Shown: in pieces, positions 33,001 to 36,000 of the stretch
Layout: the number at the start of each line of letters is the position of its first letter
Numbering within the stretch: position 1 is the first letter of the stretch
Sequence record: CP054387.1
Reading direction: 5' to 3' (one strand)
Length of the DNA: 64,000 nt
Source of the DNA: Escherichia phage CMS-2020a
Position numbers: made by a program

Positions 33001-36000
33001 TCATAGACGTTGCGGTTATATAGATTGACTGGCGCAGACTCGATGCCAAACGTCTCAACAATCTCTTTAGCCGCCAGAATGCGAGACACTTGTGATGGCA
33101 AAGCCGGGCACTGGTTCATGACCGCGCGGACCTTCACTTTATCGTTTACATTGCGAACATTGTCGATAATAGGATCGATGTCACGTAAAGATTTCAAATC
33201 ACGACGCTTAGGACGCAGCGGGATAATGATAACGTCAGCCATCAGCATCGCTTGTCGCTGAATTTCGGAGTCGAAGCCACCAGCATCTACCACTACAAAC
33301 TCAGCTCTACCCTGAAGCGATTTTAGGTGCTTAATGATGTCATCCTGAACGTATGCAAAAGGAATCAGCTCAAGGTCTTCGTTCTGTCGACGGTCTTCAC
33401 ACCAGCTCGTTGTCGTGCGCTGAATATCTATATCGGTAATATAAACCTTCTTCTTCTTTTTGACTTTCAGGCAAACGGCAATTTGCTGGGCAACGGTGGA
33501 TTTGCCAGGCCCGCCCTTTGTGCCGCCAACCACAAAGATCTTGGTCATTGGAGAGTTCCCTTTGCGTATATAATTATCGTCTGAAACAACTTGTTTTCTT
33601 ATATGTGATATAGCCTAAATGCCTACGGCTGCGGTGTAAAGGTTAAATGGCAGGTTGTGATTAACAATTGGCAAACATAGCTTGTATTTGTCTGTTGAAA
33701 AAAGTAACAATGACCTCTATATTACAAGTACGGTGATATGCTGTACACAATTTGATAATGCACACGTAATGGGCTATAGCCTTTTAAAGTAATTTTTGAG
33801 TCGAAAACTCAGTTTGAACAGAGGAGATTGATGGCCTTCCTACATCACGGCCATCAGGAGGAATACATGTCAGCACTAAAAAAGCAGCGCATCGATTTGA
33901 GATTAACCGATGACGATAAAAGCATCATCGAGGAAGCTGCCGCAATGTCTAACCAGAGCATTACTCAGTTTATGGTTAGCAGTGCATCTGAACGTGCCGT
34001 GAAAGTTATAGAGCAACACCGTAGACTGGTTCTGAATGAAGAATCCTGGAATCTGGTTATGGACGCTATAAGCAATCCTCCGGCACCGAACGACAAGCTG
34101 AAACGAGCTGCTGATCGTCTGAAAAGCATGGAGTAGTTTACTCGTGGATAATATAAAGATAGAAATTTTCTCTGGAGAGAAAGATTATGATTTGAATGGT
34201 TTTGATTGCGGTGAAGAATCACTAAATACCTTTTTAACCAACCACTTAAAAAGGCAGCATGAGGGAAAAATTCTTCGCGCTTATGTGCTTTGCACGAAAA
34301 AAGGCAGACCAAAAGTGTTAGGGTATTACACTTTGTCAGGTAGCTGCTTTGAAAAGGAGTCCTTACCTTCAAGAAGCCAGCAAAAGAAGGTACCTTATCG
34401 GAATGTTCCAAGTGTTACTTTGGGTAGGCTGGCTTTGGACAAGTCCCTTCAAGGTCAAGGATTTGGCTCAATGCTTGTAACACATGCAATGCGCGTTGTG
34501 TACAATGCATCTCTTGCTGTAGGCATTCATGGACTTTTCGTTGAGGCGTTAAATGACAAAGCCAAGGCGTTTTATAAAAGTTTAGACTTTATCCAGCTGG
34601 TTGGTAACAACGAGCGTTCTTTGTTCTATCCTACAAAATCTATCGAAAAATTGTTCGAAGAATAATGTACTCCCCTCAAGTGAGGGGAACTTCGCATCAC
34701 CAACCGCAAACTCTCTCTCCCATCGTATTGTGAAAAAGGATTTGGCGTTCGGTTTCTTCGGTCATCACATCATTATTGCTGATATAGATAGGCCCAGCTC
34801 CATCGCAGAACAATACGCTGGCGGTTTGTGGTTTAATGACGCACCCACTTATCATACAACTCACGATGAACGGCAGAAGCATCTTTCTGACGTATTTTAT
34901 TGCTCGTCTCATTCACCACTTCCACTGTGCTTTGAAGTCGTTTTCTGTCTTCCTGTTTTGCCTTCTCTTCCATTGCTCGTCGCGCCGCATTCCCGCCCAT
35001 CGTGTAAGCGCCGACAAGAACGAAAAGAACGGCAGCCAGCGTAATCAAAGCAACTTTTAGCTTTGTCATCAGGCTGCCTAGCATATTAGACCATCCCTTT
35101 CTGGTGTCTTCTTACCTGCGACCAGGCAATGAATCCTGCCACAACAATAGTGGCAATACCGAAGATGATGCGTACTGTATCCCCACTAGAGATATGACCT
35201 TGTGCTTTATCCATAGCAGCGGAAACCTGCGGCATAACATCGGCCAGCTGCGCCAGACCAATACCTGCTGTAACAGTTGCGCCTGCTGTTTCTTTAGTTA
35301 CAGGAACAGCCTTCACGGTTTTCACCGGCTTAACGACTCCAGCTCGACGCAGACCTTCCTCAATAACTTCTGCCGCATACCAGGTGTTCAGCGTTTTTAG
35401 CGGACCTCGCCCATTCTCATGGCGAATGATTGCCTCAACCAAAGGTCGAAGGATGTCGTAATCATGCAGATCGATGATCATGTCTGCGGTTACACCAACG
35501 GCTTTAGACACCTCATTAATGTAGGCGTCAGTATTGTTTTCATTCGGCGGTGCCCAACGTTCAATAACTTCACGAATGGTATCGATACTTGAGCCGTCTT
35601 TTGCGCGACGTTTGTCGTGGTAGGTAATTAGAGTCACCGCCAGCGCACGAATCCCCCAAACAGGGTCTTTAAACGTGCAAAAGCGCGGTTCGTCTGGATT
35701 CGCAACCAGACCTTGCCACGGTGATCCTTTATCAAGATTACCGGGGTTATTATTACGAATGCCTCTCGGAGTCTTCATCCTTGTTCTCCTGTTATTGCAG
35801 TCCATTTTTTACGCCATATGCGGCTAATCCTAAAATTAGTGCGGTTATAATAAACGACGTCACTTTAGAAATAATGCCTCCAAAGAAGCCGCTTGAGATC
35901 GAATCTAACCTATTAAGTAGTTTATCCAGATTGGAATGTTGAATACTGTGTTGAGCCGGAGTCATGTCACCAAAATAGTTTTTCAACTGCTCATGAACCT

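Follow-up and report, generated by a model that had tools for sequence, protein, structure and literature searches.

The closest described relatives of the locus treated here are two type II toxin-antitoxin (TA) pairs that combine a DUF1778-type antitoxin with a GNAT acetyltransferase acting on aminoacyl-tRNA, namely AtaR-AtaT of enterohaemorrhagic Escherichia coli O157:H7 (structures 6GTS and 6AJM) and KacA-KacT of Klebsiella pneumoniae (structures 5ZGN and 5XUN). In AtaT, residue G108 binds acetyl-CoA (the G108D variant is non-toxic) and Y144 is catalytic, so that mutation of G108 or Y144 detoxifies the enzyme; L27 and L136 form the aminoacyl pocket, and H34, R37, S76, and S78 contact the tRNA (PMC7595197). 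The operator on which KacAT was crystallised, AAATGTACGGTTATTAACCGTACATGA, is 27 bp long, extends across the kacAT transcription start, and carries the motif GTACGG-N7-CCGTAC; in this complex, G9 accepts two hydrogen bonds from Arg8 of KacA, the R8A and R12A variants of KacA abolish DNA binding, and conditional cooperativity operates via a KacT-KacA2-KacA2-KacT hexamer (PMC6698736). We analysed a stretch of 64,000 nucleotides (the window) from Escherichia phage CMS-2020a (sequence record CP054387.1) and find in its region 33549-34700 a pair of this kind as two plus-strand open reading frames (ORFs), 33828/33867-34136 and then, from a GTG, 34144-34665. The pair is an ordinary, intact member of a well-characterised family and is already annotated in the sister element Cyrano, and we consider it likely that the locus is an intact type II TA operon of the AtaRT/KacAT clade which forms an accessory module beside partition genes and works by the mechanism proposed below, including addiction.

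The toxin gene (34144..34665, plus strand, GTG start) encodes a predicted aminoacyl-tRNA acetyltransferase of 173 amino acids of the AtaT/KacT type with Pfam GNAT domains (Acetyltransf_1/7), and its 69% identity to solved structures predicts a GNAT fold. Compared with all PDB chains, it matches AtaT best (6GTS/6AJM; E-value 7.4e-79, gapless over residues 1-172, 68.8% identity), with KacT (5ZGN) at an E-value of 1.8e-74 and both far ahead of the next group (E 3e-20) and of the TacT-type chains. In the gapless alignment to AtaT, the acetyl-CoA pyrophosphate-binding loop (Q-x-x-G-x-G) reads LQGQGFG and includes G108, and the catalytic tyrosine in AFYKSL is Y144. The toxin therefore keeps the catalytic residue and also the acetyl-CoA-binding residues, whose loss an earlier note on this DNA, made from the sequence alone, had named as the observation that would speak against its assignment. 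L27, H34, R37, S76, S78, and L136 of AtaT are kept as well, and R40E, R71K, and A26S are substitutions relative to AtaT.

The antitoxin gene (33867..34136, plus strand, stop codon TAG at 34134-34136) precedes the toxin gene in a bicistronic arrangement, with a gap of exactly 7 nt and the GGAG of the toxin located within the final antitoxin codons. Its predicted product of 89 amino acids is of the AtaR/KacA type and has an N-terminal ribbon-helix-helix (RHH) DUF1778/TacA1 domain (Pfam PF08681, E 5.7e-26, profile positions 1-79 of 80); its PDB matches are KacA (E 6.6e-42, 80.5% identity) and AtaR (E 1.3e-40, 76% identity). Its DNA-reading residues are R8, D10, and R12, as in KacA and AtaR, and at the toxin-contact residues Q70 and R77 of KacA the antitoxin has N and K, as in AtaR. 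The arrangement agrees with the earlier note, which had placed a DUF1778 antitoxin and a GNAT toxin 7 bp apart on the plus strand of a phage-plasmid at these same positions.

The start of the antitoxin is predicted to be ATG 33867, which aligns with residue 1 of AtaR and KacA and is preceded by a Shine-Dalgarno sequence (AGGAGG, 33856-33861). We rejected the upstream in-frame start (TTG 33828 or ATG 33831) in favour of ATG 33867 since ATG 33831 lies inside the 5' arm of a leader hairpin described below (P3) and varies among homologues in both presence and frame: it is absent in the leaders of the Enterobacter and Lelliottia type, and a 1-nt insertion puts it out of frame in a 91%-identical sub-clade of phage-plasmids. 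The upstream stretch (33828-33866) has a GAGGAG of its own and would lengthen the antitoxin by 12-13 residues. The Cyrano record annotates the antitoxin as such a longer ORF (306 nt) from the upstream in-frame ATG, which is probably wrong.

Sequence comparison places the pair in the AtaRT/KacAT group, which is clade A of the GNAT/DUF1778 family as defined in PMC9177977. The earlier note had called it TacA/TacT-like, which holds for the GNAT/DUF1778 superfamily and its shared chemistry of aminoacyl-tRNA N-acetylation, but the pair is not a member of the Salmonella TacAT group itself, as the TacT-type chains (5FVJ, 7AK8) match the toxin only at E 5e-11 over residues 20-149 and the identities to AtaT, AtaR, and KacA are much closer. 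The same holds for GmvA-GmvT of the Shigella plasmid pINV, which like TacAT belongs to clade D and is remote in sequence; clade A toxins (AtaT, KacT, AcaT) accept a broad set of targets, whereas the clade D toxins TacT and GmvT act almost exclusively on Gly-tRNA (PMC9177977). AtaRT resembles the pair in having the antitoxin first, in protein lengths (88-89 amino acids for the antitoxin, 173-175 for the toxin), in the key toxin residues, and in the operator motif GTACGG-N7-CCGTAC, which is also found upstream of ataR in O157, but differs in its chromosomal location between livJ and panM, in an operator that lies ~26 nt before the start codon with no structured leader, and in a 6-nt gap followed by an ATG toxin start instead of a 7-nt gap and a GTG. 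The NCBI annotation pipeline names the chromosomal pair AtaR/AtaT and the proteins of the window merely "DUF1778" and "GNAT". KacAT, located on the Klebsiella chromosome, has the nearest antitoxin and shares the half-site motif with its 7-nt spacing, but its operator lacks the change that we find in one half-site of the window at the guanine read by Arg8.

L27, H34, R37, and G108 do not vary in a set of 59 distinct toxin homologues (59/59) and Y144 is present in 58/59, and the toxin ORF is intact in 91 of 92 homologous loci. Within the phage-plasmid clade, the ratio of nonsynonymous to synonymous substitution rates lies at 0.07-0.18 in the toxin gene and at 0-0.07 in the antitoxin gene, and both genes are under strong purifying selection. 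Occasional copies nevertheless look inactivated: homologue L051 and the identical L054 (both metagenome contigs) have a natural Y144F, the catalytic-dead change used in AtaT/KacT crystallography, and another metagenome contig (L042) has a premature stop within the acetyl-CoA loop (LQGP*FG). Homologues close to the pair also exist beyond phage-plasmids, including a 71%-identical paralogue that adjoins repB and vapBC on an E. coli plasmid and the chromosomal ataRT between livJ and panM (~65% nucleotide identity), which we find at 1626 chromosomal places in 5426 complete E. coli genomes (~30%). Some E. coli genomes hold both the chromosomal ataRT and a plasmid copy.

The element that carries the pair is an SSU5-like phage-plasmid. 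Around its parA, lysis-cassette, and tail-fibre genes, it is homologous in DNA sequence to SSU5, Cyrano, and plasmid p09EL50 of E. coli O104:H4 and syntenic with them, and its gene order (helicase, parA, TA pair, Rz/Rz1, endolysin, holin, tail fibre) marks an element of this type. The TA region of ~1.1 kb (1141 nt) is 99.9% identical to p09EL50 and 96.8% identical at the nucleotide level to Escherichia phage Cyrano, and a similar region is present in ~140 other non-mobilisable plasmids of ~110 kb, mostly of E. coli and in a few cases of Shigella and E. albertii. The pair lies opposite parA, as the earlier note had it: parA (32880-33548, minus strand; NCBIfam ParA_partition, E 1.9e-33, under the cutoff of the model) is transcribed divergently. 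In an alignment of the window with Cyrano and SSU5, homology to SSU5 flanks the TA module on both sides; SSU5 shares only the parA-proximal 96 nt, its homology ends at ~33655 and restarts at ~34710, and in the same slot it has two unrelated minus-strand genes (SSU5_031/032). Yet other genes of unannotated function fill the slot in the relatives pJN2-26 and PhiR41_1, and the occupants in SSU5, pJN2-26, and PhiR41_1 have no Pfam or PADLOC match. Because SSU5 homology is interrupted here and the slot holds unrelated genes in these relatives, the pair is an accessory module in a variable slot; it covers 33656..34710 on the plus strand (promoter, operator, leader, antitoxin, toxin, and a hairpin; the right edge is approximate), replaces SSU5_031/032 between parA and the lysis cassette, and is present in 143 of 598 plasmid records (~1/4) with a match to the parA-proximal sequence.

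Cyrano (pLF82 of E. coli LF82) has the identical type of module in the same slot of the same element family, its pair being 97% identical to that of the window, and differs in a perfect operator (CCGTAC), in the annotation of the antitoxin from the upstream ATG, and in having no tRNA-Tyr gene. The Cyrano module (KacT/CYRAN_27) is annotated as "KacT acetyltransferase-type toxin" and "putative antitoxin" among the morons transcribed in the lysogen, with transcription above the local prophage background by 35-fold for the toxin and 60-fold for the antitoxin (PMC9928086). Given that the family is well understood and the module known in Cyrano, the TA pair itself adds little. What appears modestly new is a conserved structured leader together with a rare operator allele that would weaken repression.

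Upstream of the antitoxin, we predict a sigma-70 promoter of the TA operon at 33695..33723 on the plus strand (-35 TTGAAA at 33695-33700, a 17-nt spacer, and -10 TATATT at 33718-33723; 10/12 matches in a promoter scan), and in 47 distinct promoter sequences of homologues, a block gTTgAaaa-N17-TatnnT keeps a constant spacing to the operator. The operator GTACGG-TGATATG-CTGTAC (33728..33746, plus strand) begins 4 nt past this block, so that the predicted +1 lies inside it. Allowing one mismatch, the KacAT motif is found once in the 64-kb window, at these positions, with a chance expectation of 0. We collected homologous loci from genomes, metagenomes, and viral contigs and kept only those with a locatable antitoxin start; the motif is upstream of the antitoxin in 92/92 of them, at 40-172 nt from the ATG, and has perfect half-sites in 90/92. 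On this comparison, 33728-33746 is the predicted autoregulatory operator of the pair and the site bound by the RHH antitoxin. In one viral contig (L100), the left half-site is altered, in mirror image of the change that the window has in the right one. Three contigs from metagenomes and IMG/VR (L043, L098, and L099) have two tandem operator-like sites ~32 nt apart (GTACGG-N7-CCGTAC and then GTACAn-N7-CCGTAC), followed by the same three-hairpin leader that is described below for the window.

In the window, the right half-site of the operator carries a C-to-T change at 33742 and thus reads CTGTAC instead of the CCGTAC of Cyrano, p09EL50, and 90/92 loci; on the bottom strand, GTACGG becomes GTACAG and loses the equivalent of G9. 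This is the only difference from p09EL50 that we identified in the 1141-nt region, and the T variant is present in 1/94 plasmid records (the 66.5-kb Shigella sonnei plasmid CP022461.1) and in 0/108 E. coli plasmids. The change may be a sequencing error. A precisely located operator with a natural variant of putatively weakened function could be used as a probe of conditional cooperativity in vivo.

Between the operator and the antitoxin start lies a predicted structured leader of ~120 nt (33747..33866, plus strand). The distance from operator to ATG falls into three length classes among homologues (21-26 nt including ataRT, 62-94 nt, and 112-153 nt), and the window belongs to the long class. 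An alignment of the long leaders of Enterobacter, Lelliottia, Huaxiibacter, an E. coli plasmid, and metagenomes reveals differing sequences with complementarity kept at three places, and separate folding of each long leader gives hairpins at three matching positions. In the window, these are P1 (GGGC-uaua-GCCU, 33771..33782), P2 (UUGAGU-cgaaa-ACUCAG, 33796..33812), and P3 (UGAUGGCC, a 12-nt loop UUCCUACAUCAC, and GGCCAUCA; 33829..33856), all on the plus strand, with the 3' arm of P3 abutting the Shine-Dalgarno sequence. P1 is the weakest of the three: a hairpin with differing stems sits at the homologous position in most lineages (helix 80.6% paired, 4/6 pairs changed on both sides), and several homologues (L050-L052, L057, and L005 among them) lack it or have it in degenerate form. 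P2 is formed by seven different stems at one position (UUGAGU/ACUCAG, GAGCC/GGCUC, UAAGC/GCUUA, AAGCC/GGCUU, GAGC/GCUC, AGCC/GGCU, and GCC/GGC) with 3/5 pairs changed on both sides and with loops that vary as well. P3 corresponds in the window to the 8-bp perfect inverted repeat I5 and across homologues to an 8-12 bp stem with a largely conserved 12-nt loop (helix 97.6% paired, 7/10 pairs changed on both sides), and because G-U pairs are frequent in it, the structure fits the sense strand only, which points to RNA rather than DNA.

A covariance model of the leader (R2) that we built solely from lineages other than the window matches the window at 33747-33869 with 50.2 bits (E 8.7e-10); we used it in place of an earlier MAFFT alignment (A3) and a first model (R1), in which the clade of the window was one column off register and pairing was under-counted. 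The R2 alignment comprises 18 distinct sequences; in it, paired cells make up 88.3% (500 column shuffles 78.3 +/- 1.0%, reached by 0/500; slid registers 17-47%), 14/21 pairs are changed on both sides (shuffles 7.8 +/- 1.6, reached by 0/500; slid registers <=5), and the covariation score is 0.395 (shuffles 0.201, slid registers <=0.075). Two points weigh against this picture: the alignment is fitted to the structure by the covariance model and represents only ~7 independent lineages, and the single-sequence fold energy of the window leader is unremarkable (z = -0.73). A search of the leader (33747-33866) against Rfam 15 gave nothing at the gathering score, the best permissive matches being unrelated families at E >= 0.35, and our literature search found no paper on a 5' untranslated region in GNAT/DUF1778 systems.

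Somewhat short of an even chance, in our estimate, the leader is an undescribed cis-acting regulatory RNA of a sub-clade of AtaRT/KacAT on phage-plasmids, plasmids, and some chromosomes, which would add post-transcriptional control of the antitoxin to repression at the operator. Our best guess, of low confidence, is that it adjusts how well the antitoxin is translated or how stable the mRNA is; fixing the antitoxin:toxin ratio and reacting to the translational stress that the toxin itself causes are possible examples. Because the leader is conserved in part of the clade and missing in the well-studied chromosomal ataRT, an operator-only model may not fully capture how this toxin family is regulated. 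A leader peptide or attenuation mechanism was rejected, as the mini-ORFs of the leader (e.g., ATGGGCTATAGCCTTTTAAAGTAA at 33769) are unconserved. On the MAFFT alignment, RNAalifold proposed that the P3 loop (UUCCU) pairs with the Shine-Dalgarno sequence. This pairing has 0 pairs changed on both sides and only -0.62 kcal/mol and would compete with the far more stable P3 with no linker for a pseudoknot, and we keep it as a weak idea only. The medium leaders of five homologues (L012, L014, L016, L018, and L062) form another, shorter class that likewise ends in a covarying hairpin against the Shine-Dalgarno sequence (e.g., GUACUGC-ugacaccugcg-GCAGUAC and then GGGAG), and a hairpin at this place may be a recurrent trait in the clade.

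What we infer for this pair, namely toxicity, tRNA targets, hexamer formation and repression, the role in addiction, and the function of the leader, would come together as follows. Transcription would begin at the sigma-70 promoter 33695-33723 with its +1 within the operator GTACGG-N7-CYGTAC (33728-33746), giving an mRNA with the ~120-nt three-hairpin leader whose last hairpin sits at the antitoxin ribosome-binding site and probably tunes translation or mRNA stability. The RHH antitoxin, by analogy as a toxin-antitoxin4-toxin hexamer, would bind this operator and repress its own operon, and its C-terminal part would block the toxin. When the antitoxin is lost, for example in a plasmid-free cell, the toxin would use acetyl-CoA to acetylate charged tRNAs at their amino group (in the case of clade A toxins, the tRNAs for Gly and for Trp, Tyr, Phe, and Met) and translation would stop. 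The net effect is most probably addiction, stabilising the low-copy prophage-plasmid.

Addiction, i.e., post-segregational killing, is most probably the role of the pair and its most economical reading given the partition-gene neighbourhood of a low-copy element, expression in the lysogen, purifying selection, the paralogue beside repB and vapBC, and the precedent of GmvAT, a plasmid-borne GNAT TA pair that promotes vertical transmission of Shigella pINV (PMC6519299). A precedent in an unrelated family is Phd-Doc, a type II TA pair likewise found on a plasmid-maintained phage (phage-plasmid P1) and linked to addiction and conditional cooperativity in the passages of PMC6698736 and PMC7969092 that cite it. 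With such a role, the pair would probably help to determine the stability of SSU5-like phage-plasmids, a group that circulates in clinically concerning lineages of E. coli and Shigella. The protein families of Phd-Doc are unrelated to those of the pair, and Doc is a Fic-family kinase acting on EF-Tu and not a GNAT acetyltransferase.

Several points weigh against this interpretation. R40, one of three residues in a triple mutant of AtaT with lowered toxicity, is a glutamate in the toxin of the window. Its operator half-site being damaged, the T allele may bind the repressor complex less well, and repression would then be weaker than in relatives. Cyrano is present at ~5.5 copies per cell (PMC9928086) and has partition genes and other TA modules (HicAB), and for these reasons an addiction role could be redundant. 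Close homologues are also chromosomal (ataRT between livJ and panM), where an addiction role is not obvious, and the chromosomal AtaR could in principle cross-neutralise the toxin of the plasmid, possibly as an anti-addiction module.

It is unlikely, in our view, that the pair is mainly a module for anti-phage defence or competition between elements by abortive infection or exclusion, in which an infecting phage or competing element would shut down host transcription or degrade the antitoxin and the freed toxin would halt translation before the invader finishes. The pair does sit in a variable "moron" slot whose contents differ among relatives, but the other occupants are without defence or any other annotation; a second variable slot ~1.4 kb away encodes a KAP NTPase that matches the candidate defence family PDC-S49 (E 2.8e-22), but the toxin and antitoxin themselves match no PADLOC 2.0 family at E <= 0.001. 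Strong transcription in the Cyrano lysogen would suit defence, and passages of PMC12409363 describe in general terms tRNA-directed immune effectors and phage-encoded tRNAs that counter them, yet a full-text literature search found no paper clearly tying the GNAT toxins of this family to phage defence, and the parA neighbourhood and the paralogue beside repB and vapBC suit plasmid maintenance better. We give still less credence to the view that the pair is effectively silenced or travels as a selfish passenger from which the phage-plasmid gains nothing, and that it is kept only because its loss is lethal or because the chromosomal AtaR cross-neutralises it. The module is indeed absent in SSU5 and most relatives (143/598 matching plasmid records have it), chromosomal ataRT with its 76%-identical antitoxin is common in E. 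coli, and the homologues include the metagenomic copy with a stop in the acetyl-CoA loop and the natural Y144F; however, purifying selection on both genes is strong, 91/92 toxin ORFs are intact, promoter, operator, and leader are conserved, and the pair is expressed in the lysogen. Selfish and addictive behaviour are moreover mechanistically one process, and these two readings differ only in the beneficiary.

A further alternative concerns regulation and comes from the earlier note, which had pointed to a small palindrome (TGAGT-cgaaa-ACTCA, 33797-33811) as the possible antitoxin-bound autoregulatory operator. The palindrome exists, precedes the antitoxin gene as a perfect 5-bp inverted repeat, and has its palindromy retained at this position in homologues, but it is highly improbable that it serves as the operator: it lies ~65 nt downstream of the predicted +1, short-leader homologues including ataRT lack it, and the experimentally defined KacAT motif sits ~50-70 nt upstream of it at 33728-33746. 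Its position is that of hairpin P2, where seven stems keep only their complementarity, whereas the R8, D10, and R12 residues of the antitoxin match those of KacA and AtaR; since the sequence varies across homologues and the complementarity is kept, we read the palindrome as an RNA stem and not as a protein-binding site. Its significance comes from this comparison with homologues only, as a 5-bp palindrome is itself at chance level (3 inverted repeats in the 318-nt intergenic region versus 2.46 +/- 1.9 in dinucleotide-preserving shuffles, 87% of which have at least one).

The earlier note had also raised an interaction of the toxin with tRNAs of the element itself. Four tRNA genes (Ser-UGA, Thr-UGU, Tyr-GUA, and Asn-GUU; 22081-22904, minus strand) are indeed present, and two of the four are in target classes because clade A toxins acetylate Tyr-tRNA efficiently and Asn-tRNA weakly (PMC7595197). 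A specific link is nonetheless not supported, as the tRNA locus varies independently of the TA pair and the two do not co-occur between SSU5, which has no pair and only tRNA-Asn, and Cyrano, which has the pair and tRNAs for Asn, Thr, and Ser but none for Tyr. The tRNA-Tyr of the element (22738-22824, minus strand) has the acceptor stem GGGGAGU/ACUCCCC (G1-G2-G3-G4-A5-G6-U7), in which the pair A5-U68 breaks the G-C run at positions 4-6, and AtaT needs G-C pairs at these positions in tRNAfMet (PMC7595197). By this analogy, it might be a poorer substrate of the toxin than the tRNA-Tyr of the host, which we regard as a lead and not as a finding. The tRNA cluster is mosaic: a stretch of ~290 nt that separates tRNA-Thr from tRNA-Ser (~22360-22650) shares 93% identity with the upl/plp region of phage P1, and the Asn-Tyr-Thr tRNA block is 95% identical to phage vB_EcoM-Ro157c2YLVW.

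Downstream of the pair, a GC-rich hairpin (CTCCCCTCA-agtg-AGGGGAAC region, 34669..34690, not assigned to a strand) lies between the convergent toxin and Rz/Rz1 genes within the segment missing from SSU5. A scan scores it as terminator-like on the minus strand, and it is likely a terminator, with plus-strand termination a conjecture given that no T-run follows the hairpin. On the other side, past the parA operon, the second variable slot encodes a 567-amino-acid KAP-family P-loop NTPase (30775-32478, minus strand; Pfam PF07693, and PDC-S49 in PADLOC), in place of which Cyrano encodes a DUF2971 protein and SSU5 carries different genes without known function. Directly downstream of parA lies an ORF of 119 amino acids (32521-32880, minus strand) whose start codon overlaps the parA stop by 1 base, an overlap that may couple the translation of the two. 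No Pfam family matches the ORF, and its PHROG match is a family of unknown function only. The Cyrano record labels its homologue "RelE/ParE putative toxin", but the position beside parA suggests a small centromere-binding partner of a type Ib ParA and not a toxin.

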